Shown here piece after piece: positions 6,497-46,461 of a stretch of 59,036 nucleotides of DNA; the first letter of the stretch is position 1, and each line of letters starts with the position of its first letter. The stretch is from Candidatus Binatota bacterium (lineage in GTDB: Bacteria; Desulfobacterota; Binatia; JACPRU01). Position numbers and translations under genes: made by a program. The notes beneath the pieces are model-generated. The model did no database searches. It was given only the letters and a program-made list of their open reading frames with translations, and was not told the DNA's origin. The stretch is taken from positions 1-59,036 of the forward strand of contig JAXDLK010000005.1 in assembly GCA_034666665.1 (NCBI GenBank). Direction: 5' to 3'.

Positions 6497-6498
6497 CC

Positions 6499-24983: not shown

Positions 24984-25051
24984 CCCCTTTGCACCACGGA
25001 TCCCCTACGGCACGGACGATTCTGTCAGGTGATCACGACGGTGCGAATCCT

Positions 25052-25108: not shown

Positions 25109-26440
25109 TTAGAAGCCGGCGCTCTTGATCAGGTAGTTGATGGTGAAGTTATCCGGCGTGTTCCACTCCTTCGTGGTGTTGTGGTACCAGTGCTTCACTC
25201 CCAGGTTCGGATAGAGATACCCGTCCGGGCAGTCCCACTTGGAGGTGTGGTTCAGCTGGTGATCGACCACGCCACCGTGGTTCGGGTAGATGTGGTCGTA
25301 GTCGTACGTCGGTGCGTTCGTCGTGCTGGTCGGCACGGTCTTGTAAGCCCCGCCTTCCTTCTTCACGTCGTGCGGGCTCTTGCCCGTGTCCGACATCATG
25401 TACCAGGTCCTCCACAGCTCGCCGCCGTGGTCATAGCCCTCGTTGTACTGGGCCATGTAGGACTCCTTGTCGATGTACAGGATGCGCTTCGAGAACGCGT
25501 ACTGTGAGAACCCGGTCGGCGTTCCCTCGATCACGATCGTGTCACGCACTTCGTGGGGCACGCACCAGATGAAGGCCTTCATGCCGCTCTTGCCATCGGG
25601 CTGGGCGCACCAGGCTTCACGCTGGCCGTAACCGCCCGCGTGGAACGCCGCGAGGAGCTTCTTCTCGCCGAGGAACTTGAACGTCCAGAAGGACAGCTTC
25701 GAGTTCCAAGTCCAGATCGAGTCGATGTCGATGTCCGTGCCCCAGAATGCGTCGGAGCGATTCGCCATCGAGAGACGGCGGACCTTCCGCAGCTCGGGGA
25801 GGTACATGTAGGAGTCGTCCGGAACGTCAGGGGAGACGTAACGGAAGTTGAGCACGCCCGCGCCCTTGAGGTCGTTCGGGTCGTGGAGGGGACCCCACTG
25901 CTCGGTGTAGATGATCGCCGGGTCGTGAGCCACGACCGGCTTCGGGTCCAGGTACAGACGGCCGCGCCACATCATGCGGCGCCAGAAGTTCGAGCCGAAG
26001 AAACGCTCGCGCTCACCGTTCGAGTTCACGAGCTCGACGTTCCAGCCGCAGCCGACGTTGTCGGTGTACGGGGTCTTCTGCTCGTGGTTCCACATCCACT
26101 TGTAGGCCGCGAGCGGATCATTGGGATCCACGTTCGGGAACGGTGCCCCGGCAACGTAGTTCTCCATGTTCCGGCCATCCGCCGACAGCTGAACCTGGGC
26201 CGAGTACTTCTCCGTCGCCTCACGATACTTCGGAGGCCATTCGTACTTGCCGTACTCGATGACCGGGATCTCCATGTCGGCGTTCTTGACGAAGTACGAG
26301 AGGCTCGGGAACAGAACCTCCTGATACTGCGCCATGTTCGCCTTGGTGATGATGGTGCCGGCCTTCGGAATCTCCGCCATCGCCGGCAGGGCGATCGCAA
26401 GCAGGGCCGCGACCGCCATCGAGGTACTAACTCTTCGCAT
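25109..26440 (-). CDS. DUF1329-family (LolA-like) periplasmic/outer-membrane protein
   Basis: The start is set at ATG 26440 after GGAGAAGG. The signal peptide is MRRVSTSMAVAALLAIALPAMA. Motifs typical of DUF1329 are YVAGAPFPN and WMWNHEQK. Confidence 0.8.
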   Translation of the reverse strand: MRRVSTSMAVAALLAIALPAMAEIPKAGTIITKANMAQYQEVLFPSLSYFVKNADMEIPVIEYGKYEWPPKYREATEKYSAQVQLSADGRNMENYVAGAPFPNVDPNDPLAAYKWMWNHEQKTPYTDNVGCGWNVELVNSNGERERFFGSNFWRRMMWRGRLYLDPKPVVAHDPAIIYTEQWGPLHDPNDLKGAGVLNFRYVSPDVPDDSYMYLPELRKVRRLSMANRSDAFWGTDIDIDSIWTWNSKLSFWTFKFLGEKKLLAAFHAGGYGQREAWCAQPDGKSGMKAFIWCVPHEVRDTIVIEGTPTGFSQYAFSKRILYIDKESYMAQYNEGYDHGGELWRTWYMMSDTGKSPHDVKKEGGAYKTVPTSTTNAPTYDYDHIYPNHGGVVDHQLNHTSKWDCPDGYLYPNLGVKHWYHNTTKEWNTPDNFTINYLIKSAGF

Positions 26441-26497: not shown

Positions 26498-26513
26498 AGC
26501 AACGGCCGTGCCG
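26498..26513 (-). promoter_or_regulatory. Sigma-54 (-24/-12) promoter upstream of the DUF1329 gene
   Basis: The minus strand reads CGGCACGgccgTTGCT against the consensus TGGCACG-N4-TTGCW. The GG-N10-GC spacing is exact. It lies about 58-73 nt upstream of ATG 26440 and directly downstream of an NtrC-type activator gene. Confidence 0.65.
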
Positions 26514-26654
26514 CGTGTCAATCGAACGCCGCCCGGACGGGAAGCCACAACTGCATGAAATCGCAGCTCTTTCTCGAAGTAGTCCCAAAGAGGCGAGTAG
26601 GTAGTTCCACCGGAATTCGGGAATAATTCCGCAGCCCGGAGATTCTCCCCGACC

Positions 26655-28058: not shown

Positions 28059-29997
28059 GCAGCTTCTCGGCTTCCGCGAGCGCCAGGCGCACGACGAAGA
28101 CGGTTCCGGCGCCCCTCGCCGGATCGTGGAGCTCGAGCTCGCCGCCGTTCTCGCGGACGAGATCGTGGCAGAGCGACAGCCCGAGCCCGGTGCCCTTCTC
28201 GGGGGGCTTGGTCGAGAAGAAGGGCTCGAACACGCGCTCCCGGAGCTCGACCGGAACGCCGGCGCCGTCGTCTTCCACGCGAAGCTCCGCGAAGCCGGCG
28301 ACGGGGAGCGTGCGCACGGTCACCCGCCCTCCTCGGTCGATTGCGTCGAGCCCGTTCAATGTCAGGTTCAGGAGCACCTGCTTCAACTGCTCCGGATCGG
28401 CATCCACCCACAGTGGCTCGCTGGCGACCGCACCCGCAAGATGCTTGCCGCCGATCCGCGAGTGGTTCGCGAGAAGCTCGAGGACCTGTCGCGCGACGTC
28501 GTTCACGTCCATGCGGCGCTTCTGGGGTGATTTGCTGCGGGCGAAGTTGAGGAACTTCTGCACGATCGTCTTCAGCCGGTCGACCTCGTCGACGATCAAT
28601 CGCAGGTGTCCCGGGAAATCGGTGAACGAGGGTTCCGCCGCGAGCCGGGGGTCGGCCGCGCGGTCGAGGAGCCCCTCCGCGAATCCCGAGAGGATGCCGA
28701 GGGGATTGTTGATCTCGTGAGCGACGCCGGCGGCGAGCCGTCCGACCGCGGCCATGCGGTCCTGCCGGATCAGCATCTGCTGCGCGTCGGCGAGCTCTCG
28801 CGTTCGCACCTCGACCTTGCGCTCGAGCTCGTCGTTCCACCGTCGCAGCGTCTCGAGCAGGCGGCGGTTCTCGGCGAGCGCGTCCTCGAGCGCGGAGGTC
28901 CGTTCCCGCACCATCTCCTCGAGGTGGGCCGTCAGCTCGCGAAGCTCGCCGATCCGCTCCTTCAACGATCGGCGCATCGATTCGAACGCGCGCGTCAGCT
29001 CCTCGACTTGCGCGCCGCCGCTCGGCGGCGGCAGCGGCGCGTCGTAGTTCCCCGCCCCGAGCTCGTGGGCAGCCACGGCGAGCTCCGAAAGCGGCCGGGC
29101 GACGGAGCGTGTCAGCAAGAAGCCCGCGGCCAGCGCCGCGAGAAAGACGAACCCGGCCGTCAGCACCAGCCGGCGCTCGAGCGCGCGGAGCGCGAGGGCG
29201 TCGGGCGAGAGCGAGCGCAGGATCGCATACGCTCCGACCGGCTTCGGCCCGATGCCGACGAAAGGCCGGACGACCAGCGCCGGCGCCTTGCCGTGGAGCT
29301 CGACCTCGCCGTACGCCGGACGCACGCCCTCGACGCGCCCTGCGAGATCGGAGATGGCGGCCCGCTCGTGAGGCGAAAGCTCGCGAGAGGAGGCGACGAC
29401 GTCGCTGCCGACGAGGAACGCGATGTCGTTTCCCGACAGCAGCGAGAGCTCGGTGGCGAACCGGCCGTCGACGCGGAATCCCACGCTCAGCGTCCCGGCG
29501 AGGCCGGTCGGCAGCCGCAGCGGCACCGAGACCATCTGGTAGAGCTTGTCTTCGTGGATCCACATGCTGCTCGCGCGCTCGCCGCGGAGCGCCCGAGCGA
29601 CGCTGGTGGTCTCGTCGAAGATGTCGCCGAGCTCCCAGCGGCGGTCCGAGCGGCCGAGGATCACCCCCGAGCGATCCGTGATCAGCACCACCTCGGAGCC
29701 GACGAGACGGTTGATCTCGCGCGAGGCGTACTCCAGGAACGGCGGGTCCCACGTGTGTGCCGGCTCGTGGAGGACCGGCAGCCGGGTTACCAGCGACGCC
29801 GCGGTGATCAGCGCGTTCGCCCGCGTATCGAGCAGCTCGTCGAACACCCGCTGCGCGGTCTCGAGCTCGTCGCGAACCGTTTGCCGCACCTGGTTCGTGA
29901 CGTGCCAATCCACGAGCCACAGCGAGCCGATCAAGGTCGCCGCCACGAGCAGACCGAAGTATCCGAGAATGCGGCCTTGGAAGCCGATCCGGCTCAC
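28045..29997 (-). CDS. Sensor histidine kinase with a large periplasmic sensor domain and HAMP
   Basis: GTG start. It has a TM helix, a ~270-aa periplasmic domain, a second TM helix, HAMP and a coiled coil. The H-box is AAGVAHEINNPL and the HATPase boxes are DDGAGVP and GTGLGLS. It overlaps the RR gene by 14 nt. Confidence 0.88.
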   Translation of the reverse strand: MSRIGFQGRILGYFGLLVAATLIGSLWLVDWHVTNQVRQTVRDELETAQRVFDELLDTRANALITAASLVTRLPVLHEPAHTWDPPFLEYASREINRLVGSEVVLITDRSGVILGRSDRRWELGDIFDETTSVARALRGERASSMWIHEDKLYQMVSVPLRLPTGLAGTLSVGFRVDGRFATELSLLSGNDIAFLVGSDVVASSRELSPHERAAISDLAGRVEGVRPAYGEVELHGKAPALVVRPFVGIGPKPVGAYAILRSLSPDALALRALERRLVLTAGFVFLAALAAGFLLTRSVARPLSELAVAAHELGAGNYDAPLPPPSGGAQVEELTRAFESMRRSLKERIGELRELTAHLEEMVRERTSALEDALAENRRLLETLRRWNDELERKVEVRTRELADAQQMLIRQDRMAAVGRLAAGVAHEINNPLGILSGFAEGLLDRAADPRLAAEPSFTDFPGHLRLIVDEVDRLKTIVQKFLNFARSKSPQKRRMDVNDVARQVLELLANHSRIGGKHLAGAVASEPLWVDADPEQLKQVLLNLTLNGLDAIDRGGRVTVRTLPVAGFAELRVEDDGAGVPVELRERVFEPFFSTKPPEKGTGLGLSLCHDLVRENGGELELHDPARGAGTVFVVRLALAEAEKLRARA

Positions 29998-30067
29998 GTT
30001 TGGGGAAGTATAGGAAGCGGCTCCCGCCGGCGCAATTCGCCCGGCGCGGGGCGCTTCGCGCCGATCG

Positions 30068-30472
30068 TCAGCCGCCGGTGCCGCCGGATTCTTCCGCGGT
30101 CGCGCGGCGGGCGCAGTCGGTGATGTCCGACAGCTTGGATCCGGGTCCGAAGACGCCGGCGACGCCGAGCTCGCGCAGGCGCGCGGCGTCCTTCCGATGC
30201 ACGATTCCGCCGACGAGCAGTGGAACGCCGTCGAGCCCGATCGCCTGCATTTCCGCGATCAGACCGGTGACGACCTCGACCGGATCGCGGTCCATGATGC
30301 GGAGCGCGATCAGGTCGGCGTCTTCCTGCGCGGTCGCGGCGGCGATCTCCCGCGGGAGCTGCTGCCCGGTGACGATCACCTCGAAGCCGGCGTCACGGAG
30401 GGCCTGGGCGACGACGTAGTATCCGGCGGTGTGGCCGCGGGTGTCGCTCGCTAAGAGCACGCGACGAGTCAT
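30068..30472 (-). CDS. Cobalamin-binding small subunit of an acyl-CoA mutase (variant His loop)
   Basis: By eye it aligns with IcmB and the MutB C-terminus (ALRDAGFEVIVTG, QEDADLIAL, LLVGGI). The loop reads TRGHTAG where the canonical motif is DGHDRG (DxHxxG). Confidence 0.75.
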   Translation of the reverse strand: MTRRVLLASDTRGHTAGYYVVAQALRDAGFEVIVTGQQLPREIAAATAQEDADLIALRIMDRDPVEVVTGLIAEMQAIGLDGVPLLVGGIVHRKDAARLRELGVAGVFGPGSKLSDITDCARRATAEESGGTGG

Positions 30473-30535
30473 CGCCCGCTCCGGAAGAGCGGATGACGAA
30501 TGCCGGCGGAGAACGACAGGGCGTTCATCGCCGGG

Positions 30536-32173
30536 TCAATAGAGGCGGATCATGAACCCGCCGCGCTTGCGGAGCTCGGTCTCGCCGGCGACCGCGGCCA
30601 GGGTCTCCACGATCTCGCCGATCGACAGATATGCTTCCGCGGCTTCGAGCGTCGGCTCGACGATCGGTTCGCGCAGCCGGTACGCTTCCGCGAGCCGCCG
30701 ACGCGCCGCCTCGGCCCCGCCCGGATCCCGTTCGCGCTTCACGCGCTCGAGGCGCCGGATCTGCTTCTCCCGCCACGCCGGATCGTAGTCCGGCTCGGCG
30801 CGGTGCGAGACGGGGCCGAAGGAAGGCTCCTCCTCGTCCTCCTCGACGAAACAGTTGACGCCGACCACGGGCCGGCGGCCGTCGTCGATCTCGAGCTGAC
30901 GCCGGTAGGCGGCGTCACGCGTGCACGCGCTGATGTGTCTCCATGCCCCCTCGGCGGAGAGGCGACCGAGCTCCGCGAAGATCTCCCGGGCGCGGGATTC
31001 CAGCTCGTTGGTGAGCACTTCGATGGCCCAGGAGCCGCCGAGCGGATCGGCGACGGCGGTGACGCCGGACTCGAGCTGGATGATCTGCTGGGTGCGGACC
31101 GAGAGCGTCTGCGCGAGCTTCGAGGGAATCGTGAAGGCCTCGTCGAAGGCGTTCACCGACATCGATTGCGCGCCGCCGAGCGCCGCCGCCAGCGCGTGCA
31201 GCGTGGCGCGGACGACGTTGTTCAGCGGCTGCTGTGCGGTGAGCGCCACGCCGGATGTCTGGACGTGGAAGCGGAGCTGACAGGCGCGGTCGTCGGTCGC
31301 TCCGAGCCGCTCGCGCATGATCCGCGCCCACATCCGCCGGACGGCGCGGAACTTCGCCACTTCCTCGAGGAAATCGCTCTCCGCGTTCAGGAAGAACGTC
31401 AGCCGCCGCCCGACGCGGTTCACGTCGGCGCCGCGCTCCTTCGCCGTCGCTGCGGCGTACCAACCTTCGTACAGGCCGAAGGCGATCTCCTGTGCCGCGC
31501 TGATCCCGGACTCGCGGGTGTTGCGCACCGAGATCGAGGTGTGGTTCCAGCGCGGCAGGTGCTTCGCGCAGTACTCGATCACGTCCACGTAGTGGTTGCC
31601 GGAATACTTCGGCGGCTCGCCCCACGGCAGCACGTAATTCTGGATCGTGCCGGAGAGATCGGCGAGCGGGATTCCGCGTCGCTTCGCGGTCGCGAGGATC
31701 ATGCAGAAGGCGGGGATCGAGTTGCCGGTCTGGTTGATGCTCGTGCGCTCGATCGGCACCTCGCGGAAGACGAGATCGACGTCGTCGAGGGTGTCGACCC
31801 AGACGCCGCCGCGACCGACGAGGCCCGCCGCCCGCGGGTCGGACGACTCGAAATGCGCGTAGCCGAGTCCCGTCAGGCTGATGCCGGTCTGCCCCTCTCG
31901 CAGCAGGTAGCGCAGGCGCTCGTTGGTCTCCTCCGCGGTGCCGAGTCCCATGACCTGGCGAACGGTCCACTTGCGCCCGCGGTAGCCGGAGGGTCGCGTG
32001 CCGCGGGTGAAGGGATATTCGCCGGGGTTGCCGAGGTCGCGACCGTAGTCGAGCTCTGCGACGTCGGCCGGCGAGTAGAAGGACCCGAGCTCGACGCCGG
32101 AGGTCGTGACGTGTGCCGGAGGCGTTCGACCCGTTCCGTCCCGCGAGTCACTCACCGCGACCGAGGCTCGCAA
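30536..32173 (-). CDS. Methylmalonyl-CoA mutase family large subunit, strongly divergent
   Basis: Motifs seen: GEYPFTRG, SGTIQN, FLEEVAKFRAVRRMWA, HVQTSGVALTAQQPLNNVVR and SMSVNAFDEA. The start is uncertain (TTG 32173 or GTG 32155) and there is no clear SD. Confidence 0.8.
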   Translation of the reverse strand: MRASVAVSDSRDGTGRTPPAHVTTSGVELGSFYSPADVAELDYGRDLGNPGEYPFTRGTRPSGYRGRKWTVRQVMGLGTAEETNERLRYLLREGQTGISLTGLGYAHFESSDPRAAGLVGRGGVWVDTLDDVDLVFREVPIERTSINQTGNSIPAFCMILATAKRRGIPLADLSGTIQNYVLPWGEPPKYSGNHYVDVIEYCAKHLPRWNHTSISVRNTRESGISAAQEIAFGLYEGWYAAATAKERGADVNRVGRRLTFFLNAESDFLEEVAKFRAVRRMWARIMRERLGATDDRACQLRFHVQTSGVALTAQQPLNNVVRATLHALAAALGGAQSMSVNAFDEAFTIPSKLAQTLSVRTQQIIQLESGVTAVADPLGGSWAIEVLTNELESRAREIFAELGRLSAEGAWRHISACTRDAAYRRQLEIDDGRRPVVGVNCFVEEDEEEPSFGPVSHRAEPDYDPAWREKQIRRLERVKRERDPGGAEAARRRLAEAYRLREPIVEPTLEAAEAYLSIGEIVETLAAVAGETELRKRGGFMIRLY

Positions 32174-32198
32174 GGAAAAGCGCGGAACGCAACCGGGA

Positions 32199-33419
32199 TC
32201 AGGCGGATACGGGCAGCGACTTCAGGCCTCGGCTGACGATCGTGGGATGCCACTCCGGGTGTTCCGCCGTCACCCGCAGTCCGGGGAGTCTCTGGAGGAG
32301 ACGCGGGAACGTGAGCTGACCTTCGAGCCGGGCGAGCGGTGCCCCGAGGCAGAAGTGGATGCCGTAGCCGAATGCCAGGTGATCGTTGTCGCCCCGCGCG
32401 ACGTCGAGCCGCTCGGCGTCCGGGAAGCGCGCCGGATCGCGGTTTGCCGCCGCCTGCACCAGGAACACGCGCTGGCCCCGCCGGATCCTTCGGCCACGCA
32501 GCTCGTGGTCCTCGCTCACGTAGCGGACCATCACCTTGGACGGTCCGTCGTAGCGGAGGAGCTCCTCGACCGCCGAGGCGGCGAGCTCCGGGTGGCGCGC
32601 GAGCTTCTCGCGCTCGGCGGGATTTCGGTAGAGCGCGAGAAAGCCGTTCGCGAGCAGATTCGTCGTGGTCTCGTGTCCCGCGAAGAGCAGGAGAATGCAG
32701 GTCGAGATCACCTCGTCCGCCGTCAGCACGTCGCCTTTCTCCTCCGCGACGGAAAGCGCCGTCAGCAGGTCTTCCGTCGGCGCTCGCCGGCGACGGTCGA
32801 GGAGGTCTCGGAAGTAACCCTCGAGCGCGAGCAAGCCTCGCGTGGCGCGTCCGTGGCGGTCGGCGTCGCCGGAGGCGCCGAACACCAGGTTCATCACTTC
32901 GTTCGACCACTCGCGAAAGCGCTCGTGGTCCTCGGGCGGCACGCCGAGCATCCGCGCGATCACGATCGCCGGCAGCGGCGCGGCGAAGTCGCTCACGAAG
33001 TCGGACGCTCCGCGTCGCTCGAGCTCGTCGACGAGGCCGTCGACCGCCTCGACGATCTGCGAGCGCGATCGCTCGACGATCCGCGTGGTGAAGGCCATGT
33101 GGACGAGCCGGCGAAGGCGCCCGTGATCGGGCGGATCCTTGAAGACCATCCAGTTGCCGAGCAGCCGCACGATCGCATCGAAGGAGCCGCGATCCTCGGC
33201 GGCGACCTTCTCGTTGACGAACGTGTTCACGCGGTCGGCCGAGAGACGGGCGTCACGGAAGGCCTGCGTGACGTCGTCGTGGCGCAGCAGCATCCACGCG
33301 TGGTGCGCCTCGCTCCAGTGGACCGGATCTTCGGCGCGGAGCCTCCGGAAGTACGGATAGGGGTCGTCCACCCGCTCCGCGGTCAGCAGGTCGCCGCCGG
33401 TGCTCGTCGAGACGCTCAT
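32199..33419 (-). CDS. Cytochrome P450
   Basis: The I-helix reads LLLFAGHETTTN. EELLRY matches ExxR. The heme loop is FGYGIHFCLGAPLA. ATG 33419 overlaps the thiolase stop (ATGA). Confidence 0.92.
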   Translation of the reverse strand: MSVSTSTGGDLLTAERVDDPYPYFRRLRAEDPVHWSEAHHAWMLLRHDDVTQAFRDARLSADRVNTFVNEKVAAEDRGSFDAIVRLLGNWMVFKDPPDHGRLRRLVHMAFTTRIVERSRSQIVEAVDGLVDELERRGASDFVSDFAAPLPAIVIARMLGVPPEDHERFREWSNEVMNLVFGASGDADRHGRATRGLLALEGYFRDLLDRRRRAPTEDLLTALSVAEEKGDVLTADEVISTCILLLFAGHETTTNLLANGFLALYRNPAEREKLARHPELAASAVEELLRYDGPSKVMVRYVSEDHELRGRRIRRGQRVFLVQAAANRDPARFPDAERLDVARGDNDHLAFGYGIHFCLGAPLARLEGQLTFPRLLQRLPGLRVTAEHPEWHPTIVSRGLKSLPVSA

Positions 33420-34534
33420 CCGCCGAGCACCGCGACCACGCACGCGTTGGCATCGATGCCCGCGACTCCTCCGCCCATGGTCTCGACCACGCCCACGCGA
33501 GCATCCTCGACTTGGCGCTCGCCGGCCTCGCCGCGGAGCTGCCAGACGATCTCCGCGACTTGCGCGAGACCGGTGGCGCCGAGCGGATGCCCTCGCGAGA
33601 GCAGGCCGCCGGAGGTGTTCACCGGCTGCGAGCCGCCGAGCCCGAAGCGGCCGCTCTCGATCGCCGCCGCGCCTCGGCCGATCTCGACCAGGCCGAGAGC
33701 CTCGACCGTGACGATCTCGCCGATGGTGAAGGCATCGTGCACCTCGAGGACGTCGACATCGCCGGGCTCGATCCCCGCCTTCTCGAACGCGGCGCGCGCG
33801 GTGTCGCGCGCGACCTCGAAACCCCAGACGAACGGCGAGCGGTGGTCCCAGAGCTTGCCGGAACGGAGCACCGACGCCCGGATCGGCACGTCTCGAGCTC
33901 GCCGCGCGGGAGCGATCACCGCCGCGGCGGCGGCGTCGGCGATCGGGCAGCACTGCAGGAGCGTCAGCGGGTCCGCGATCATGCGCGAGGCGAGCACCTC
34001 CTCGATCGTGGTCTCGCGCCGGAACTGCGCCCGCGAATTGCCGACCGCGTGGCGGCGGTTCTTGACGGCGACCGCCGCGAGCTGCCACGGCTGCACGCCG
34101 AACTCGTGGCGATAGCGTGCCGCGGACATCGCGTAGAGGCCCGGCAGGGCCATGCCACTGCGTCCCTCCGGGTCGGTCGCCTCCGGATGGATCGCACCGT
34201 CGAAGAGCGTGCTCATCTGCTCGATGCCGAGCGCGAGCACGCGCTCGAAGCGGCCGGACGCGACCGCGATCCGGGCTTCGTGGAACGCCGACGTGCCGCT
34301 CGCGCAGGCGTTCTCGATCGTCAGGATCGGCACCTCGGTGATGCCGAAGCCGTGGAGCGCTCGCTGCGCCGCACCGGGCGCGGCGAAGACGCTGCCGACG
34401 TACACGGCGTCGACGGAGGTCACGCCGGCATCCGCGAACGCCTCCTCGATCGCCGTCCACGCGAGAGAGGCGAGGCTCCTCTGCGACTGCTTCGCGAACG
34501 CGGAGGTTCCGACGCCGCAAACCGCGGCGGTCAC
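33416..34534 (-). CDS. Thiolase family protein (SCP-x/archaeal-type, catalytic Cys retained)
   Basis: Motifs seen: ILTIENACASGTSAF and NTSGGLLSRGHPLGATG. The GTG start overlaps the DUF35 stop (GTGA). Confidence 0.88.
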   Translation of the reverse strand: MTAAVCGVGTSAFAKQSQRSLASLAWTAIEEAFADAGVTSVDAVYVGSVFAAPGAAQRALHGFGITEVPILTIENACASGTSAFHEARIAVASGRFERVLALGIEQMSTLFDGAIHPEATDPEGRSGMALPGLYAMSAARYRHEFGVQPWQLAAVAVKNRRHAVGNSRAQFRRETTIEEVLASRMIADPLTLLQCCPIADAAAAAVIAPARRARDVPIRASVLRSGKLWDHRSPFVWGFEVARDTARAAFEKAGIEPGDVDVLEVHDAFTIGEIVTVEALGLVEIGRGAAAIESGRFGLGGSQPVNTSGGLLSRGHPLGATGLAQVAEIVWQLRGEAGERQVEDARVGVVETMGGGVAGIDANACVVAVLGG

Positions 34535-34923
34535 GGGTCCTCCTCGACGACGAGGTCGCCGCCCGCGGAGATGCCCGTCAGTCGCACGCGAGTGCCGATT
34601 CGGAGCGGAGCGTCGGCTTGCCTTGCGGCGTGCGCGAGGATTCTCGGGCCGTCGTCCAGGTCGACGTAGGCCAGGGCGTACGGCGGCGTGCGGCCGGGAA
34701 CCGGGATGCGCACCACGGTGGACGACCAGACCGTTCCGAGCGGTCCGAACAGGTCTCCGGCGACTGCAGCGCCGCAAGCCGGACAGCGCAGGCGCGCGAA
34801 CGCCACCGGCAGGCGACACTCGGTGCAACGCACGCCCTCGATCCGCGAGCTGCCGTCTCCGTGGGCGATCAGCCGCGGGCGCGGGTCGGGAGCATCGCAC
34901 GGTCGTGGGGAGATCCCGGTCAC
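34531..34923 (-). CDS. DUF35 Zn-ribbon/OB-fold protein (thiolase partner)
   Basis: The rubredoxin-like ribbon reads CTECRLPVAFARLRCPACG and is followed by an OB-fold region (YALAYVDLDDGPRILA). The GTG start overlaps the RND stop (GTGA). Confidence 0.8.
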   Translation of the reverse strand: MTGISPRPCDAPDPRPRLIAHGDGSSRIEGVRCTECRLPVAFARLRCPACGAAVAGDLFGPLGTVWSSTVVRIPVPGRTPPYALAYVDLDDGPRILAHAARQADAPLRIGTRVRLTGISAGGDLVVEEDP

Positions 34924-37280
34924 CCGGGTGGCACCCCCGCACCGGCAGCCAAGAAGCGCGGTCGCAGTGCCACCAACAGCGCCGGCAGCAGGGTCACGCT
35001 CGCGAGGAAGCTCACCACCATCCAGATCGCCAGCAGGAACCCCATCTCGGCGTTGAAGCGGATCTCCGAAAACCCCCAGAAGAGGATGCCGGCCACCATG
35101 GTGATCGCGGTGAAGGTGACGGTCTTGCCCGCGGTGCGGAGCGCTTCGAGCACCGCCTTGTCGATCGAGCCCGCGCGGGCGAGCTCCTCCTGTGCCCGGC
35201 TGACGACGTAGAACGCGAAGTCGATGCCGAACCCGATGCCGACCGTGACGACGGGGAGCGTGTGCACGTTGATACCGATCCCCCGCGCCCCCATGTAGGC
35301 GTTCACCGTCGCGTTGGCGATCACCAGCGGCGCCACCATCAGGATCGCACCGACGATCGATCGGTAGGTGATCGCGACGATCAGCAGGATCGTGATGTAG
35401 CCGAGGGCGTTCAGCAGTACGTCGTTCTTGACGAGCTCCTCGTTCGCCGCGGCCAGGACGCCGATCAGTCCGCCGGCGAGACGGAACTGCGCCTTTTCGA
35501 GGGGATGCCCGGCGACGAACTCCTTCGCGTGGGCGATCGCTTGCCGGATGGTGTCGCCCCTGTGGTCCTTGCAGTAGAAGAAGACCGCCGTCTTGGTGAA
35601 GTCGGCGTCCATGAACCGGGCGGTCTCCTGGTACGACGTGCCCATGAAGTAGGCTCCGAAGAGCATGCTCACCATCCCCGGGCTGGTGGGGATCACCGCC
35701 CACTTCGGCTCGTACTCGTGGATCGCCATCGCCATCGTCACGATCACGTCGGCGAAGGAGAAGCTGGCGCCGACGCCCGGGTCCTTCTCCATGAAGCGCT
35801 GGAACTCGCTGATCGTCTTGACGTTCTGCGGTATGCGGACGGCACCGGGCGTGGACGCTTCGACGACGACGATCAGCGGCTCGACGCCGCCGAAGGTGTC
35901 CTGGATCCGCCGGTGTGCCTCGTTGTACTTCGACCCGTGCGGGAGAAGCGGAGTCACCGCCTCGGAGTCTCCGACTTTGACCTGCGTCCAGAGCACGACG
36001 CTCACCAGGAAGACCGCGGCCCAGGCGGCGAACACGACCGTGCGACCGGTCCGTGAGACGATCGCGGGTGCGATCGCATCGACGATCCGCTGGAAGATAC
36101 CGCGTGGCCGGGCTTCGACGATCTCGCGATCGGGCGGCGCGAGCAGCGAGTAGATCACCGGGTTCAGCAACAGCTCGCTGACGACGATCGCCGCGATCCA
36201 GAAGGACGCGCTGATCGCGAGCTTCTGCAAGAGCACGATCGGCACGAGCAGGATCGCGAGCACCCCGAGGGCGTCGGTGATGATCCCCGACAGCGTCGGC
36301 ACGAAGAGCGCGGCGAAGGAGCGGACGATCGCGTCCTCCTGGTTCCAGTTCGAATCGCGGTACTCCTCGTAATACCGGTCGTGCATCTGCGCCGAATGGC
36401 TGACGGCGCGGGCGGTGATGAAGAAGGGAATCACCAAGGTCAGCGGATCGAGCGTGAAGCCGATCAGCTTGATGAAACCGAGGCCCCAGATCGCCGCCAC
36501 CGTGCCGGAGAGCGTCGGTCGGAGCGCGCCCCGCCAGTCGCGGAAGTAGACGTAGAGGAGGATCCAGGCGACCGCCAGCGTCGCCGCCAGGATCCAGTAC
36601 GCCTGGGATGCGTAATAGTAGACCCAGCCGTACAGCTCGGGCTCGCCGGCGATCACGATGTCGTGCGTGTCGTCCTCGAACGCGCGCACGACCTTCGTGC
36701 GGATGTCGTTGAATAGCCGCCGGTGGTCGAGGCGGCCCTCGATGAAGCTCGCGCGGATCAACGCCGCGCGGTCGTCGAGCGACACCAGAACGCCGTAGAG
36801 GTTCTGCGACGTGTGCACGATCCGGCGGACGCGCCGTACGTCCTCGTCCGTCTTCGGTCCGCGGTCCATCACGGGCTGCATCTCCATGAGCCCGCCGGCG
36901 CCGATCCGCAGCGTGCGGTTCGTGCGGTGCGCGATGGATTCGATCTGGTAGTGGTTGACGCCGTAGATCGTGTCGAGGACCTGCGTCATGTTGAAGATCT
37001 TGTTCAGCGTCGGCAGGTCGAAGATCGTGCCGGACTTCGACTCGATCAGGATCAGGATCGTGTTCGCGCCGCCGAAGGTCTTCGCGTACTTCGTGTGAGT
37101 CTGCACGAACGGATGATCGGTCGGCAGGATCTCGTCGAAACGGCTCATCATCCGGAGCCCGGCGGTGTGGTACGCGAAGAAGGCCGTCACCGCGAGCACG
37201 GACACGAGGACCGTCGAGCGCCACCGGATCAGCCAACGGCCGAACCGGACGAGACGATCGCTTTCCGCAGGTGCGCTCAT
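34920..37280 (-). CDS. RND-superfamily transporter, COG1033/MMPL/HpnN-like (786 aa)
   Basis: Only the C-terminal 786 codons of the 1706-aa track ORF look real. ATG 37280 (MSAPAESDRLVRFGRWLIRW) overlaps the upstream stop (ATGA). It has two 6-TM bundles with two periplasmic loops. Confidence 0.88.
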   Translation of the reverse strand: MSAPAESDRLVRFGRWLIRWRSTVLVSVLAVTAFFAYHTAGLRMMSRFDEILPTDHPFVQTHTKYAKTFGGANTILILIESKSGTIFDLPTLNKIFNMTQVLDTIYGVNHYQIESIAHRTNRTLRIGAGGLMEMQPVMDRGPKTDEDVRRVRRIVHTSQNLYGVLVSLDDRAALIRASFIEGRLDHRRLFNDIRTKVVRAFEDDTHDIVIAGEPELYGWVYYYASQAYWILAATLAVAWILLYVYFRDWRGALRPTLSGTVAAIWGLGFIKLIGFTLDPLTLVIPFFITARAVSHSAQMHDRYYEEYRDSNWNQEDAIVRSFAALFVPTLSGIITDALGVLAILLVPIVLLQKLAISASFWIAAIVVSELLLNPVIYSLLAPPDREIVEARPRGIFQRIVDAIAPAIVSRTGRTVVFAAWAAVFLVSVVLWTQVKVGDSEAVTPLLPHGSKYNEAHRRIQDTFGGVEPLIVVVEASTPGAVRIPQNVKTISEFQRFMEKDPGVGASFSFADVIVTMAMAIHEYEPKWAVIPTSPGMVSMLFGAYFMGTSYQETARFMDADFTKTAVFFYCKDHRGDTIRQAIAHAKEFVAGHPLEKAQFRLAGGLIGVLAAANEELVKNDVLLNALGYITILLIVAITYRSIVGAILMVAPLVIANATVNAYMGARGIGINVHTLPVVTVGIGFGIDFAFYVVSRAQEELARAGSIDKAVLEALRTAGKTVTFTAITMVAGILFWGFSEIRFNAEMGFLLAIWMVVSFLASVTLLPALLVALRPRFLAAGAGVPPG

Positions 37281-40123
37281 CGTTCCTCCATCTCTCGCTC
37301 GATCCGCGAACGCGCTTCGGGAAGCGCAGGGTTCGCGGGGTCGAGCGCTTCGAGGCGCCGGACCGTCTCGATCGCTTCCCGGTACCGCTGCGCGCGCTCG
37401 TAGGCATACGCCAGGTTCGACAGATACGCGAAGTTGTCCGGTCGTTCGGTCGCGGCCCGTTCGAGGTACGGGATCGCGTCCGGGAATCGCTCGACCCGCA
37501 GCAACGCGGCCCCGAGCAGCTGGTTCAGGAAATGGTCCGTCGGCTGGATCTCCTGAGCATACGAAGCGAAGCGGATCGTCCGCTCCGGATCGGGTCCGCC
37601 GAGGAGGGTCCGGTAGTCGCTCCCGAGGAACCTCAGGAACCGGCCGCGGAGCTCGGTGAGCAACACGCCGACGTCCGCGTCCCGCGGGTTCAGCCGCCGC
37701 GCGCTTTCCAGGTCCTGAAGGGCCGCGAACGCGGAATCGACGGACGGATCGACGGCGCGGAGCTTGGCATCGAAGAGCTTCCGGCGCGCGGTGAAGACGG
37801 TCTCCGGCAGCCGGGTGGCCCGCGAAAGCGCGGCACCGTCCATGCCCTTCGCGAGGATCTCGAGGTCCATGCGGAAGGTGTTCGGCACCGCGATCCGGTT
37901 GAGCTCCGCGAACTCGACCGAAGCACGGTCGTCCGTCAGGAGCTCGGCACCGCCGCTCAGGCGATCGACGCCGCCGTCGGCGGCGACGACGTATCGGAGC
38001 ACGTCCTCGCCGCGCTCGACGCCCACCGACGCCAGGTCGGCGGCGACTTCCGGCCGCTGCCGCATGCGCGCATCGATCGCCGCGGGATCGACGTCGAGCG
38101 GGGTGAGCGAGCCGATCAGGACCGAGTAGCGCTCGACGAAGAGGACGAGCACGTGGGGAAATGCCGATCGGAACGTCTTCAGCGAGGCGACGAAGTCGGA
38201 CGCCACCATGTTGTGGAGCGGCAGCCACTGGGCGAAGATCCCGCCCGGCGCGAGCTTCGACGAAACGATCCCGTAATACTCCCGCGTGTAGAGCGGCCAG
38301 CTCTCGCCGGCCGCCGGATGCGTCGCGTCCGCCGTGATGACGTCGTAGCGCTCCGTGGTCATGCGCAGGTAGTTGCGGCCGTCGTCGTGGATCAGGCGCC
38401 AGTCCGAGCGCGCCGCCGCGTTGCCGTTCTCCTTGGCGAAGAGCGCCATGGCGTCGCGGACTTCCGGGACCAGCTCGACCGCTTCGACCGTGACGGGATG
38501 CCGCAGCACCGCACCGAGCGTGATGCCGCCGCCGAGCGCGTTCACCAGCACGCGCTGGGGGTGCGGGTGGAGGAGGAGCGGCGTATGGCCGAGCAGCTTG
38601 AAGAGCAGCAGGGCGTCGCGATGGTTCGGCACTTCCTCGATGCAGTTGATCAGGAGGTCGCGCCGATCCCCTACCTGGAAGACGGAGATCGTCCCGAAGG
38701 CGCCCTCGCGGTAATAGAGGAGATCCCCGCGGACGCCTTCGTGTCCGTCGTACCACCGCGTGAGCGTGAGCGGCTCGGCGACGACGAGCGCGATCACGGC
38801 GGCGCCCGCCAGTGGAGCGGCTCCGAGGACGAGCTCGCGGAAGTTCCGCCGGAGCACCACGAGCACGATGACCGCGGTGACGGCGGCGAGCAGGCCCATC
38901 GCGACGAGCGACCGCCCGATGCCGATTCCCGGAATCAGCCCGAAGCCTGCCGTGAGCGCGCCGGCGACGCTGCCGATCGAGTCCGCGGCGAAGACGGTGG
39001 AGACCGCGGGCGCCGCGTCCTCGTCCGCCTCGGATCGGAGTAAGTCGACGAGCAGCGGCAGCAGAAACGCACCCGCCGCCGCCGCGGGGCCGACCGGGAG
39101 GATCGCCACCAGCAGTCGCACGAGGAGGAGGTCGGCCGGCCCGTCGATGACGATGACGTCCGAGAGAGCGCGTGCGACGTCGTAGAGTCGGTTGAGGAGC
39201 GGGATCGACGCGGCGACGTACACGCAGAGGAAGATCTCCACCGCCACGAAGAGCCGAAGGCGGCCGCCGTGCGACACGATCCGTCGGGCGATCGATGCGT
39301 AGAGCCAGGCTCCCACGGCCGATCCGAGAAGCACCGAGGCGAGGATGAGGGAGAACGAGGTGGTGTTGTTCTCGACGACGCAGACGAGCGTGCGGTTCCA
39401 GACCACCTGCAGAGCCATGGTCTGGAAGCCGGCGAGGAACGCCGCGACGCCGAGCGCGAATGCGACCCGGCCGGCACGCGCGCGGGCGGGCACCGGCGAC
39501 GTCTCGATCGCCGGCTCCGCCCTCCCGCGTGATGCGAGGGCCAGTGCCCCGAGGGCCGCCGCGAGGTTCACCGCCACCGCGACGCCGGCACTGGTCGCCG
39601 CTCCGAACCAGCGGATCAGGTACCAGGCGGTCGCGAGCGTACCGACGACGCCGCCGGTGGTATTCGCGGCGAAGAGTCCGGCCGCGGCTTGTCCCGCCGT
39701 ACCCCCCGTCGAGAGAGCGCGCGCGACGACCGGGAGCGTGAGCCCCATGAGGATCGTCGGGGGGAGAAGAGCCGCGAATGCGAGCACCGCGCGCACGGCG
39801 ATCGATCCGCCGGAAGCGACGTACGCCGCGTCCACCGCCGCGTGAACGGCCGGGAACGCGAGGGCGTAGACGGCAACGGCCGCCTCGGCCGCGGCATACA
39901 CGCGGAGCGCCCGGAACCGGGCGAGGCGCGGAGAGCGCCCGAGCGCATAGCCGAGCGACAGTCCGGCCATGAACGCCGCGGTGACCACCGCCACGGAGTA
40001 CGTGGAGACGCCGAAGGACAGCCGGAGCGCTCGCTCCCACAGCACTTCGTAGGCGAGCGCGGAAAACCCGGACAGCAGGAAGAGAGCTTGTACCGCCGCG
40101 CGCTCGAGGCTCGGAGTGGGCAC
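37277..40123 (-). CDS. Membrane-fused spermidine-synthase-like (PABS fold) protein with C-terminal TPR repeats
   Basis: The N-terminus LFLLSGFSALAYEVLWERAL plus ~10 TM helices is typical of fused MFS/spermidine-synthase proteins. The Rossmann region reads VLVNALGGGITLG...YDVITADATHP. The C-terminal TPR region reads AYLSNLAYAYERAQRYREAI. Confidence 0.85.
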   Translation of the reverse strand: MPTPSLERAAVQALFLLSGFSALAYEVLWERALRLSFGVSTYSVAVVTAAFMAGLSLGYALGRSPRLARFRALRVYAAAEAAVAVYALAFPAVHAAVDAAYVASGGSIAVRAVLAFAALLPPTILMGLTLPVVARALSTGGTAGQAAAGLFAANTTGGVVGTLATAWYLIRWFGAATSAGVAVAVNLAAALGALALASRGRAEPAIETSPVPARARAGRVAFALGVAAFLAGFQTMALQVVWNRTLVCVVENNTTSFSLILASVLLGSAVGAWLYASIARRIVSHGGRLRLFVAVEIFLCVYVAASIPLLNRLYDVARALSDVIVIDGPADLLLVRLLVAILPVGPAAAAGAFLLPLLVDLLRSEADEDAAPAVSTVFAADSIGSVAGALTAGFGLIPGIGIGRSLVAMGLLAAVTAVIVLVVLRRNFRELVLGAAPLAGAAVIALVVAEPLTLTRWYDGHEGVRGDLLYYREGAFGTISVFQVGDRRDLLINCIEEVPNHRDALLLFKLLGHTPLLLHPHPQRVLVNALGGGITLGAVLRHPVTVEAVELVPEVRDAMALFAKENGNAAARSDWRLIHDDGRNYLRMTTERYDVITADATHPAAGESWPLYTREYYGIVSSKLAPGGIFAQWLPLHNMVASDFVASLKTFRSAFPHVLVLFVERYSVLIGSLTPLDVDPAAIDARMRQRPEVAADLASVGVERGEDVLRYVVAADGGVDRLSGGAELLTDDRASVEFAELNRIAVPNTFRMDLEILAKGMDGAALSRATRLPETVFTARRKLFDAKLRAVDPSVDSAFAALQDLESARRLNPRDADVGVLLTELRGRFLRFLGSDYRTLLGGPDPERTIRFASYAQEIQPTDHFLNQLLGAALLRVERFPDAIPYLERAATERPDNFAYLSNLAYAYERAQRYREAIETVRRLEALDPANPALPEARSRIEREMEER

Positions 40124-40139
40124 GGCAGCGTGGGCTCGA

Positions 40140-40934
40140 TCAGGAGGGGAACTCGAAGTCGAACTCGTCGCCTTCCCCCGTCTCCTCGTCCACGATGGTG
40201 ATCGTCATGCTGCGGTAGTCGCCGCCAGGATAGAAGACGAAACCTTTCGCCGCGTCGCCTTTGCGCAGCAGCGCCGGCGCGATCACCTTCGTGCCGATCT
40301 CCGGGTCGCCCGCGAGCTGGCTGCGTGCGCGGTCCGCGGCGATCGGGGCGGTGTTTCCGCTGCCGCCGGCGCCATGAGCCAACATCTTGGCGGGGTCGAT
40401 GCGGACGTGACGATCTCCGCCGTTGATGATCGTCACGCGCACCGCGGACAGCCCGGCCGAAGACGGATTCACGCTGAACTCCACCGTCGCCTCCGGCCCC
40501 TTGATGAGCTCGGCGTTCACCCGGAGCGCGGTCGGCGGCGGCCAGATCTTGTCGCCCTGCTGGGCGATCTGATGGAAGCTGAAGCGCAGCCCGTCGTCCG
40601 CCCACTTGCCACCGCCGGACGGAGTGACCGAGACGCCCCCGCCGGTGCACTGGACGTCGAGACGCGAAGACGTTGCCCCTTCCCGCGACGCGGTGCTGCC
40701 TTTTTCGCCGGCGACGAATCCACCCGTCGGTCCGCGCCCGGCGTCCGTCAGCTTGTAGCCGTTGGTCTTGAGCGCGCGGGCGGCGTACCGGAAGGCGTCG
40801 GTGCAGGCGATCGGATAAACCTCGTGCGCGATCGGGGCCTCGGAGGGTTGGAGCACGTCGGCGACGCATCCGGCGACGCATCCGAAGGCGCCGATGACGA
40901 GAGCGAGCAGACCGGTGATTTTCGTGCGTTGCAT
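40140..40934 (-). CDS. Hypothetical lipoprotein (264 aa)
   Basis: ATG 40934 gives MQRTKITGLLALVIGAFGCVAGC, which contains a lipobox. The stop lies 16 nt upstream of the PABS-like gene start. The acidic tail reads EETGEGDEFDFEFPS. Confidence 0.65.
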   Translation of the reverse strand: MQRTKITGLLALVIGAFGCVAGCVADVLQPSEAPIAHEVYPIACTDAFRYAARALKTNGYKLTDAGRGPTGGFVAGEKGSTASREGATSSRLDVQCTGGGVSVTPSGGGKWADDGLRFSFHQIAQQGDKIWPPPTALRVNAELIKGPEATVEFSVNPSSAGLSAVRVTIINGGDRHVRIDPAKMLAHGAGGSGNTAPIAADRARSQLAGDPEIGTKVIAPALLRKGDAAKGFVFYPGGDYRSMTITIVDEETGEGDEFDFEFPS

Positions 40935-41075: not shown

Positions 41076-41453
41076 ATGGCTAAGGAAGAAACGGCAGCGG
41101 GCCAACAGGAACTCCAGGAGGCGGTCTGGCAGTACACGGGATGGGGTGTGCTGCTCGCCCTCGTCCTCGCATCGGGCACGGTGATCGGGTACCTGCTGTG
41201 GGGCGATGCGCCGAACCTCCGCACGCAGCTTCAAGAGGCGAGTCAGAAGATTCAGGCGGTCCGGTCGGAGCGCGAGAACCTGAATTACGAGATCAGTCGT
41301 TTGAAGCGAGCCAACGAGAAGCTGCAACGAGACCTCGACGCCGCAAAGACGGCTTCGCCTCCTGCGGACGGAGGAGCCGCTGCCGCCACGGGTGGCGCGC
41401 CCGCGGCTGGTGGAGCGCCCGCGACGGGCGGAGCACCCGCCGCCGGTCACTAG
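41076..41453 (+). CDS. Bitopic membrane protein with a coiled coil and a Gly/Ala/Pro-rich tail
   Basis: The TM helix is WGVLLALVLASGTVIGYLLWG. A heptad-rich segment reads LRTQLQEASQKIQAVRSERENLNYEISRLKRANEKLQRDL. Three in-frame 18-nt repeats (41391-41444) encode GGAPAA-type hexapeptides. Confidence 0.6.
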   Translation: MAKEETAAGQQELQEAVWQYTGWGVLLALVLASGTVIGYLLWGDAPNLRTQLQEASQKIQAVRSERENLNYEISRLKRANEKLQRDLDAAKTASPPADGGAAAATGGAPAAGGAPATGGAPAAGH

Positions 41454-42912: not shown

Positions 42913-42979
42913 CCGCGAGGCTCTGCGAGTGAACGCCAAGCTCTGCAAATGAGCGCGAAGCTCTGCAAATGAAGCGGAT
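42900..42979 (+). repeat. Four tandem 20-bp units spanning the VWA stop and the TPR start
   Basis: The units are gctgtccaaatgaccgcgag, gctctgcgagtgaacgccaa, gctctgcaaatgagcgcgaa and gctctgcaaatgaagcggat. They generate three 7-codon mini-ORFs, each overlapping its neighbour by ATGA or GTGA: 42909-42932 MTARLCE, 42929-42952 VNAKLCK and 42949-42972 MSAKLCK. Confidence 0.9.
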
Positions 42980-45290: not shown

Positions 45291-45340
45291 AGGCGGGCGG
45301 ATCGCGAGCCGCGGGGAGCGAACGAGGGAGGAACGCACGA

Positions 45341-46460: not shown

Positions 46461-46461
46461 C

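Follow-up and report, generated by a model that had tools for sequence, protein, structure and literature searches.

A lineage-specific mosaic operon in a Candidatus Binatota genome, probably formed by insertion of acyl-CoA catabolic modules into an AmeABCD-type transporter locus

Organisation of the locus

The complete 59,036-bp contig JAXDLK010000005.1 of a metagenome-assembled genome (MAG) held at NCBI as 'Candidatus Binatota bacterium', hereafter referred to as the window, carries on its minus strand a cluster of about 11 kb in which three genes for envelope proteins (a lipoprotein, a PABS-like/TPR membrane protein and an RND transporter) are followed by five genes for a DUF35 protein, an SCP2-type thiolase, a cytochrome P450 and the two subunits of a B12-dependent acyl-CoA-mutase-like enzyme. 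Stop-to-stop analysis recovered all eight open reading frames (ORFs), and reproduced the gene order, coordinates and spacing given by an initial annotation made from the sequence alone. The lipoprotein and PABS-like/TPR genes are separated by 16 nt, and are succeeded by four consecutive 4-nt overlaps: ATGA between PABS-like/TPR and RND, GTGA between RND and DUF35, GTGA between DUF35 and thiolase, and ATGA between thiolase and P450. Gaps of 25 nt and 63 nt then precede the large and small mutase subunit genes respectively. Both the large mutase subunit (P0121) and the lipoprotein (P0241) are present in the NCBI protein collection; the lipoprotein ORF is identical in the NCBI annotation, while the large subunit is there started at GTG 32155 to give a protein of 539 aa, so that the gap after the P450 gene becomes 43 nt rather than 25 nt. 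Searches of Pfam and NCBIfam bore out the domain assignment of every gene, including those of the histidine kinase, NtrC-type and DUF1329 genes that follow on the same strand, save only that of the lipoprotein, which matched neither collection.

The overlapping start codons are credible because GGAGG Shine-Dalgarno sequences lie 5 nt upstream of both the RND and the thiolase starts, because the DUF35 protein aligns with its homologues from residues 8–13 onward and use of its next in-frame start (codon 31) would cut off conserved sequence, and because the overlap of the PABS-like/TPR and RND genes is retained in two relatives (loci L001 and L002). Overlaps of 4 nt occur in 5 of the 35 co-directional neighbour pairs of the window, four of the five being those of this run. 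No terminator-like site was found by a window scan in any intergenic gap between 40934 and 25109, a strong terminator being located downstream of the DUF1329 gene at 24953–24990, and the GC content of third codon positions (GC3) was homogeneous at 0.82–0.93 over both the backbone and the five-gene insert described below. The proposal that the ~11 kb forms one operon was thus strengthened by the lack of internal terminators, and required three corrections: to the start of the large mutase subunit, to that of DUF1329, and to the regulatory genes, which apparently have a promoter of their own.

Table 1. Coordinates of the genes and promoter elements of the locus within the window
Feature	Coordinates	Strand	Length	Basis and remarks
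Lipoprotein	40140..40934	-	264 aa	ORF analysis; first gene of operon
PABS-like/TPR membrane protein	37277..40123	-	948 aa	Pfam Spermine_synth + TPR; NCBIfam NF037959
HAE3/MMPL-type RND inner-membrane transporter	34920..37280	-	786 aa	Pfam MMPL
DUF35 / OB_ChsH2_C protein	34531..34923	-	130 aa	Pfam PF01796
SCP2-type thiolase	33416..34534	-	372 aa	Pfam Thiolase_C_1 + Thiolase_N
Cytochrome P450	32199..33419	-	406 aa	Pfam p450
B12-dependent acyl-CoA-mutase-like large subunit	30536..32173 (NCBI start 32155)	-		Pfam MM_CoA_mutase
Small B12-binding mutase subunit	30068..30472	-	134 aa	Pfam B12-binding; TIGR00640
σ70-like promoter of the histidine kinase-NtrC genes	29998..30045	-		Cross-species conservation
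dCache/HAMP histidine kinase	28045-29997	-		Pfam
NtrC-type σ54 activator	26655-28058	-		Pfam
σ54 promoter core CGGCAC-N5-TTGC	26499-26513	-		Position; conservation in L005
DUF1329 LolA-like periplasmic protein	25109..26440 (ATG 26440)	-		Pfam; Shine-Dalgarno sequence; signal peptide
DUF1302 (two genes)	21619-23553; 50152-52257			Pfam
BNR/PSII_BNR (two genes)	20422-21558; 52357-53550			Pfam; each adjoins a DUF1302 gene

The envelope module

Homologues of the PABS-like/TPR protein were used to define 40 genomic loci, each of which was searched with all window proteins by tblastn. The orthologous clade comprised eight distinct Candidatus Binatia loci (L001, L002/L006, L003, L004, L005, L011, L038 and L040), L002 and L006 being the same contig region. 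In seven of the eight the lipoprotein, PABS-like/TPR and RND genes are followed directly by those of the histidine kinase and NtrC, the contig of L003 ending inside the RND gene; DUF35, thiolase, P450 and mutase genes were found beside the RND gene in none of the eight, L003 again ending where it does. The layout closest to that of the window was recorded in L005, in the order BNR-DUF1302-DUF3108 followed, after an interval, by lipoprotein-PABS/TPR-RND-kinase-NtrC-DUF1329-DUF1302. The additional 4.85 kb of the window is bounded exactly by the RND stop codon and by the conserved histidine kinase promoter, at which backbone synteny resumes and which marks the downstream edge of the insertion. 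A check of synteny went against the initial annotation: no sampled relative keeps the gene order at either the RND-DUF35 or the mutase-kinase junction. Exact-sequence look-ups of the PABS-like, P450 and P0121 sequences in a contig index returned no match. The L040 locus (CAVQEA010000021.1) matched as numerous separate tblastn segments, a pattern suggestive of several frameshifts, and its nominal 75% identity is that of the best segment, the overall value being about 60%.

The lipoprotein has a signal peptide and a VAGC lipobox (Cys22), and homologues 37–43% identical to it occupy the same position upstream of the PABS-like/TPR gene in L001, L002, L004, L005, L011 and L038. An AlphaFold model of the protein, built on a two-sequence alignment and with a mean confidence score (pLDDT) of 56, was unusable and was discarded.

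The PABS-like/TPR protein consists of a polytopic N-terminal part, a spermidine-synthase-like Rossmann domain at residues ~470–700 and a C-terminal TPR region at ~845–935, and scored 102.4 bits, above the cutoff of 40, against NF037959 ('fused MFS/spermidine synthase'). It falls outside SpeE, both the GGGDG/GGGEG motif that binds decarboxylated S-adenosylmethionine (dcSAM) and the Asp pair of D-S-x-D-P being altered: LGGGI stands where GGGDG is expected, D-A-T-H-P stands where D-S-x-D-P is expected, and scores against the SpeE equivalogs (63–117 bits) lie far under their cutoffs of 249–472 bits. The His of DATHP is invariant in 15 homologues, and the domain keeps many further invariant residues. 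Homologues are 56–61% identical, those that carry a taxon label deriving nearly all from Candidatus Binatia or delta-proteobacterial MAGs. Because the linkage and overlap with the RND gene are conserved, the aminopropyltransferase signatures lost and many residues nonetheless invariant, the sequence data suggest that the PABS-like/TPR protein serves as a dedicated partner of the RND transporter. A clade of ~44%-identical PABS/TPR paralogues was considered as a wider set of RND partners and rejected, the neighbours of these genes being housekeeping genes (IspG, FolD, ClpB) with no RND gene among them.

The RND protein scored 102 bits against Pfam MMPL (cutoff 20.5), and its best NCBIfam match was to the HAE3 entry TIGR00921, at 167.7 bits under a cutoff of 351.9 bits. 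Its hydropathy profile, with two large loops (residues 36–223 and 433–616) flanked by clusters of transmembrane segments, agrees with the MMPL/HAE3 architecture, defined as 12 transmembrane segments with large periplasmic loops after the first and the seventh. In L001 and L002 the orthologues, 67–68% identical, likewise overlap the end of the PABS-like/TPR gene by 4 nt. A second HAE3 RND, 51–53% identical to that of the window, was observed directly after BNR in L001, L002, L011 and L038, and in L001 also precedes DUF1302; both L005 and the window (50152–53550 compared) are without it, so that the PABS-coupled RND is the only RND of the locus.

The DUF35-thiolase-P450 cassette

The sequences of the first three inserted genes look functional. 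The DUF35 protein has a CxxC...CxxC zinc ribbon (C33/C36/C47/C50) and an OB_ChsH2_C domain. SCP2-type thiolases are defined by the motifs N-x-C-x-S-G, HDxF and GHP, and the window thiolase keeps the nucleophile Cys77 (ENACASG) together with EVHDAF and RGHPLGATG, which with its DUF35 partner places it with thiolases of the BbsAB or archaeal type. Its closest solved structures were SCP2-thiolase type-1 (6HSJ, E 8.5e-65), BbsB (7PXP) and the archaeal thiolase (6ESQ). An Ltp2-type steroid side-chain aldolase was rejected on the grounds of the retained Cys and a weaker match to Ltp2 (6OK1, E 5e-28), and the pair likewise fell short of the equivalogs for the benzoylsuccinyl-CoA thiolase BbsAB (BbsA 25 bits against 250, BbsB 232 against 750); every score against the NCBIfam thiolase/DUF35 equivalogs was in fact under cutoff. 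The P450, at 100 bits against Pfam, has intact family motifs (heme-Cys FGYGIHFCLG, EELLR and AGHETT), its closest solved structures being PksS (4YZR), BioI (3EJB) and Vdh (3A4G).

A metagenome scan with the thiolase yielded 80 loci that were then searched by tblastn, and placed the closest relatives (57–69% identity) in a recurrent DUF35-thiolase-P450 cassette. A P450 gene whose product is 45–51% identical to that of the window lies directly downstream of the thiolase gene in 8 of 15 cassette loci, and the P450 gene lies within 5 kb in three more. Neighbour clustering combined with Pfam identified the flanking genes as those of an AMP-binding acyl-CoA ligase (9 loci), a short-chain dehydrogenase/reductase (SDR; 9 loci), a TetR regulator (5 loci), a luciferase-like monooxygenase (4 loci) and an acyl-CoA dehydrogenase (ACAD; 3 loci). 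By these neighbours, the context of the cassette elsewhere is one of cytoplasmic acid activation and oxidation. A search at the permissive limit of E ≤ 1e-4 found no homologue of the RND, PABS-like, lipoprotein, DUF1302, DUF1329, BNR or DUF3108 proteins in any of the 84 loci that carry thiolase or mutase relatives. Outside steroid side-chain systems, literature searches brought up no account of a DUF35-thiolase-P450 cassette, and the Binatota genome paper makes no mention of RND, mutase or thiolase.

The mutase pair

The large mutase subunit scored 471 bits against Pfam MM_CoA_mutase and 425.7 bits against TIGR00641 (cutoff 303.8), the small subunit 84.7 bits against TIGR00640 (cutoff 57.45). 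With both domains above cutoff, and with the lower-ligand His retained in DTRGHTAG and the Asp shifted, the pair belongs to the acyl-CoA mutase superfamily; comparison with orthologues and canonical subunits gave D-T-x-G-H-x-x-G as the motif of the small subunit, as against the canonical D-x-H-x-x-G. The closest solved structure to the large subunit was that of HcmA, the 2-hydroxyisobutyryl-CoA mutase (HCM; 4R3U, E 2.8e-100). The relation of individual residues (Tyr89, Ile90, Asp117, Arg207 and Tyr243-His244) to specificity is one that we take from structures of methylmalonyl-CoA mutase (MCM), isobutyryl-CoA mutase (ICM) and HCM. The window protein departs from these enzymes at each of the positions known to determine specificity: it has Val where MCM has Tyr89 and HcmA Ile90, lacks both the FDxxT segment (TDFDMPT) that holds HcmA Asp117 and the Arg207/Gln loop, and reads VRN in place of the conserved GYH. 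An assignment as MCM or another dicarboxyl-CoA mutase was rejected given the changes to Tyr89, Arg207 and GYH and a score against the MCM equivalog of 360 bits under a cutoff of 876 bits; HcmAB was rejected given the change of Ile90 to Val and the missing Asp117 segment.

The remodelled features, with (V/A)RN for GYH, were common to all 120 homologues retrieved (55–79% identity), the named sources of which include MAGs of Binatia, Dehalococcoidia, NC10, Rokubacteria and Nitrospinae. On this evidence the pair represents a coherent, widespread and apparently uncharacterised subfamily. A 75%-identical pair in GCA_016189835.1, the MAG from which L002 derives, lies on a different contig from the transporter locus, within an operon of the order Rieske-enoyl-CoA hydratase (ECH)-ligase-ACAD-ECH-SDR-large subunit-small subunit-SDR, and in L131 the pair stands among thiolase, ECH, SDR, ACAD and CoA-transferase genes. 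As judged by such neighbourhoods, the mutase pair is a component of β-oxidation-type catabolism and has another location in the lineage of the window. Neighbours in L047 and L130 were unrelated, and in L044 the order was large subunit-luciferase-like-nitroreductase-small subunit. In all of L044–L046 (GCA_964438865.1 and Logan contigs) the subunit genes are likewise set apart by genes for a luciferase-like monooxygenase and a nitroreductase-family protein.

About 17 more distant loci in which both mutase subunit genes are linked, with or without DUF35, to a thiolase gene were rejected as support for the arrangement in the window, their mutases being only 33–40% identical and retaining Tyr89 and Arg207, and hence of a different subfamily. 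The canonical mutase pair-(DUF35)-SCP2-type thiolase order recurs in L076–L078, L087, L089, L095–L097, L100, L103, L116 and L119, which suggests a separate conserved pathway for dicarboxyl-CoA substrates.

Regulators and promoters

In the window the histidine kinase gene is preceded by TTGCGC, 17 nt, TATACT and 9 nt before its GTG start, and by no Shine-Dalgarno sequence. The corresponding arrangement TTGCCG-17 nt-TATACT-8–9 nt-GTG/ATG precedes the kinase gene in L001, L002, L004, L005, L011 and L038, the surrounding intergenic DNA being unconserved. The element was found by cross-species alignment alone, a consensus σ70 scan of the window having given no match, and from its conservation we infer a σ70-type promoter; the kinase-NtrC transcript is probably leaderless or near-leaderless in this Binatia clade. 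Since these regulatory genes appear to have a conserved promoter of their own, the transporter operon probably ends at 30068.

The σ54-driven DUF1329 gene reported downstream was borne out in a corrected form. Its start is most likely ATG 26440 and not GTG 26548, as indicated by a Shine-Dalgarno sequence, a signal peptide and the upstream σ54 core. That core looks genuine, a counterpart (AGGCAC-N5-TTGC) being present before the 82%-identical DUF1329 gene of L005, and it is the only σ54 site backed by both position and conservation: a consensus scan of the whole window showed no enrichment (25 matches against 37 expected from shuffled sequence), and no σ54 site was found before the lipoprotein gene. 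A σ54-like site at 53606, upstream of the second BNR gene, was dropped for lack of conservation in relatives. GGAGA-rich inverted repeats upstream of the DUF1329 core (window 26560–26654, minus strand; L005 about 17410–17450) may be NtrC enhancer sites. Searches of Rfam families gave no match, and no B12 riboswitch.

Other features of the window

On the plus strand at 41674–47112, genes for VWA, 773-aa TPR, ExbB, ExbD and VTT/DedA-like proteins lie between a small coiled-coil transmembrane gene (about 41076–41453) and a Sel1-repeat gene; in L001 these five are missing and the coiled-coil and Sel1-repeat genes are immediate neighbours. A 135-aa protein encoded at 53782–54189 (minus strand), between a LuxR-type response regulator and BNR, gave a match to the SCP2 sterol-transfer family that, at 19.9 bits, fell short of the cutoff of 21.3, and no homologue was detected at the same position in relatives. 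Two tandem genes of the isocitrate/isopropylmalate-dehydrogenase family (14873–16875, plus strand) share the only other 4-nt overlap of the window. At 6481–8669 (plus strand) two adjacent α/β-hydrolase genes (Abhydrolase_1) are neighbours of enoyl-CoA hydratase and Zn-alcohol dehydrogenase genes. Besides the insert, this group is the only one on the contig that might serve in the breakdown of lipids or xenobiotics.

Discussion

The cluster is probably best understood as a lineage-specific mosaic operon, in which catabolic acyl-CoA modules were inserted into a transporter operon. By sequence and synteny, three modules are conserved separately: lipoprotein-PABS/TPR-RND, DUF35-thiolase-P450, and the mutase pair. 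The initial annotation had regarded these genes as a single integrated pathway for which no described counterpart was known; the first view gives way to the mosaic, and the second to the observation that all four families of the AmeABCD-type transport system (a DUF1302 outer-membrane barrel, a LolA-like DUF1329 protein, a BNR/Ycf48-like propeller and an HAE3, or COG1033, RND) occur in the window. Judged by its gene families, the envelope half of the cluster appears to be a member or variant of this system, which has been described though its mechanism is poorly understood.

The backbone of the locus would comprise the lipoprotein, PABS-like/TPR and RND genes, followed by the probably separately transcribed kinase and NtrC genes and by the σ54-driven DUF1329 gene, and together with the two BNR/DUF1302 pairs and a DUF3108-like lipoprotein would constitute one AmeABCD-type system. 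By analogy, such a system would draw on the proton-motive force to carry hydrophobic compounds between inner membrane, periplasm and outer-membrane β-barrel. The inserted modules would be read from the promoter of the transporter and be translationally coupled to it, and co-expression within this genome is likely. The transporter might then handle a hydrophobic growth substrate which, or a derivative of which, the P450 would hydroxylate; once other enzymes, whose genes lie elsewhere, had oxidised the product and activated it with CoA, the mutase would rearrange the skeleton of a branched acyl-CoA without a carboxylate group and so open the way to β-oxidation, and the DUF35-thiolase complex would cleave a bulky or 2-substituted 3-oxoacyl-CoA. 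A functional link of this kind between transporter and catabolism is plausible because AmeABCD-type systems typically lie among catabolic genes for hydrophobic substrates. What was claimed of transport of a hydrophobic compound across the envelope and its processing therefore retains some plausibility as a link, though not as a conserved unit.

Several points weigh against this interpretation. The acyl-CoA ligase, SDR and ACAD companions of the cassette and the redox partners of the P450 are absent from the window, and the proposed pathway cannot therefore be completed from the contig. The active site of the mutase is so far from those of characterised enzymes that its catalytic competence is in doubt. 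The case for co-transcription consists solely of the overlaps, the short gaps and the lack of terminators. No direct or inverted repeats or mobile-element traces were seen flanking the insert that might indicate a mechanism of insertion; with GC3 also uniform, the event is not visibly recent. The insertion could be shared by unsampled close relatives, the nearest available being at ~56–68% protein identity, and the direction of transport is debated even for characterised relatives.

It is unlikely, although this is the strongest of the alternatives, that the acyl-CoA modules merely hitch-hike in a permissive site after the RND gene, co-transcribed with the transporter and acting on a substrate unrelated to its cargo. 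The modules are independently mobile, the mutase occurring in at least five different contexts, and the second lineage-specific insertion (VWA-TPR-ExbB-ExbD-VTT) in the neighbouring divergent operon implies a region tolerant of insertions; however, the exact start/stop overlap of the RND and DUF35 genes and the compactness of the cassette suggest selection for coupled expression, and the usual setting of AmeABCD-type systems among catabolic genes for hydrophobic substrates also speaks for a connection.

Rather less can be said for biosynthesis coupled to export, a quite improbable scheme in which the thiolase/DUF35 pair, P450 and mutase would make a lipid-like metabolite for export by the RND protein, in parallel with HpnN and MmpL transporters that adjoin the biosynthetic genes of their cargo. 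The MMPL/HpnN-like character of the RND protein would fit, as would the biosynthetic nature of the closest solved P450s, PksS and BioI, the ability of DUF35/thiolase complexes to condense (archaeal thiolase/HMGCS, 6ESQ; PhlC, 5M3K), and the export of a cell-wall component proposed for this transporter type by Price et al. (10.1101/072470). Relatives of the cassette are, however, flanked by catabolic acyl-CoA ligase, ACAD, SDR and TetR genes, the mutase orthologues lie in β-oxidation-type operons, and the envelope module is without any of these genes in all relatives, so that its native cargo must be independent of them.

The view that all eleven genes, from lipoprotein to DUF1329, form one integrated, undescribed and conserved trans-envelope uptake-and-processing pathway with co-evolved parts is very unlikely. 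The coupled starts with their strong Shine-Dalgarno sequences, the want of an intergenic terminator and the homogeneous composition would all accord with it, but the absence of the expected synteny largely refutes it: genes for CoA chemistry stand beside the RND gene in none of the eight orthologous loci, no envelope component occurs in the 84 loci with thiolase or mutase relatives, and in other genomes every module is found in a conserved setting of its own. A chimeric contig with CoA genes from another organism or locus, as might be suspected of a metagenome assembly with an arrangement unique to the window, is scarcely credible given that it would need two precise junctions, one making an in-frame GTGA overlap with intact ORFs on both sides, together with uniform GC3 and backbone synteny that resumes exactly at the conserved kinase promoter.

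If the mosaic operon is indeed co-expressed, it would amount to a natural experiment tying an AmeABCD-type transporter, the cargo and direction of which are debated, to specific acyl-CoA enzymes, and the link could help to identify the substrate class of both. The conserved pairing of PABS-like/TPR and RND proteins provides a testable hypothesis for the unknown family 'fused MFS/spermidine synthase', and the remodelled mutase subfamily may prove to catalyse a B12-dependent isomerisation not described before. Only tentatively would we advance the joint proposal that the lipoprotein-PABS/TPR-RND trio is a new RND accessory architecture, in which an S-adenosylmethionine-fold protein that is not an aminopropyltransferase modifies, gates or senses the cargo, and that the mutase pair is a B12 subfamily catalysing a new carbon-skeleton rearrangement in β-oxidation-type pathways; were such a rearrangement to exist, recruitment of the pair into a transporter operon would point to a branched hydrophobic substrate. 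Among available genomes the arrangement is a one-off mosaic, and a novel conserved trans-envelope pathway was not borne out.

Comparison with known systems

The association of a DUF35 zinc-ribbon/OB gene immediately before that of an SCP2-type thiolase is shared by the window with the BbsAB, Ltp2-ChsH2 and IpfDE modules. The igr operon of Mycobacterium tuberculosis, which we take to contain Ltp2-ChsH2 (DUF35) and also cyp125, presumably resembles the window cassette, as does Ipf, and like this operon of steroid side-chain cleavage the window has a P450 gene in the same operon. Cassette relatives lie in an acyl-CoA catabolic context, as do the SCP2-thiolase/DUF35 modules for C-C cleavage. Unlike Ltp2, the window thiolase retains its nucleophilic Cys, and in contrast to steroid and aromatic side-chain modules no MaoC hydratase or ACAD gene adjoins it.

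The mutase resembles HcmAB and the other acyl-CoA mutases (MCM, ICM, ethylmalonyl-CoA mutase (ECM) and pivalyl-CoA mutase (PCM)) in its combination of a barrel of ~540 aa and a B12-binding subunit of ~135 aa. Like HcmA it is without the carboxylate-binding Tyr and Arg of MCM, and like HcmAB its subfamily is associated with oxygenases; it departs from HcmAB in having Val for Ile90/Tyr89, VRN/ARN and DTxGHxxG, and neither the Asp117 segment nor the Arg207/Gln loop. The PABS-like/TPR protein resembles membrane-anchored spermidine synthases and the NF037959 family in that its N-terminal domain is polytopic and that it contains a Spermine_synth fold, but differs from spermidine synthases in the replacement of the dcSAM-selective GGGDG and of the second Asp of DSxDP, and in its C-terminal TPR region; of the PABS/TPR clades compared, only the orthologue clade of the window protein is linked to RND.

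Published examples of AmeABCD-type systems are AmeABCD of Castellaniella defragrans, PP_0765/0766 with PP_2018/2019 of Pseudomonas putida, and Sama_1588-1591 of Shewanella. DUF1302, DUF1329, BNR and COG1033 RND genes are cofit in several bacteria (10.1101/072470); AmeABCD lies in a monoterpene catabolic island and is needed for monoterpene tolerance and growth (PMC6394551), growth of P. putida on Tween 20 and fatty esters depends on its system (10.1101/2020.07.04.188060), and AlphaFold-based predictions indicate DUF1302-DUF1329 and DUF1329-BNR-RND complexes (PMC10866462, PMC13499233). Published DUF1302/DUF1329/BNR/RND systems are located in catabolic islands (10.1101/072470; PMC6394551), and the transporter genes of the window resemble those of the ame, phn, pip and steroid islands in adjoining genes for the catabolism of hydrophobic compounds. 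Lipoprotein or PABS-like/TPR partners receive no mention in the published descriptions (10.1101/072470; PMC6394551; 10.1101/2020.07.04.188060; PMC10866462; PMC13499233).

In contrast to AmeABCD, the RND gene of the window does not lie beside BNR and is coupled instead to PABS-like/TPR, with a lipoprotein gene upstream; the components are spread over about 33 kb; regulation is by a dCache histidine kinase, NtrC and σ54; and a DUF3108-like lipoprotein is an additional conserved member of the locus. The window RND shares the HAE3 architecture of the AmeABCD-type systems, and one of its BNR-DUF1302 units is accompanied, as in published DUF1302 loci, by a HisKA_3/LuxR-type two-component pair.

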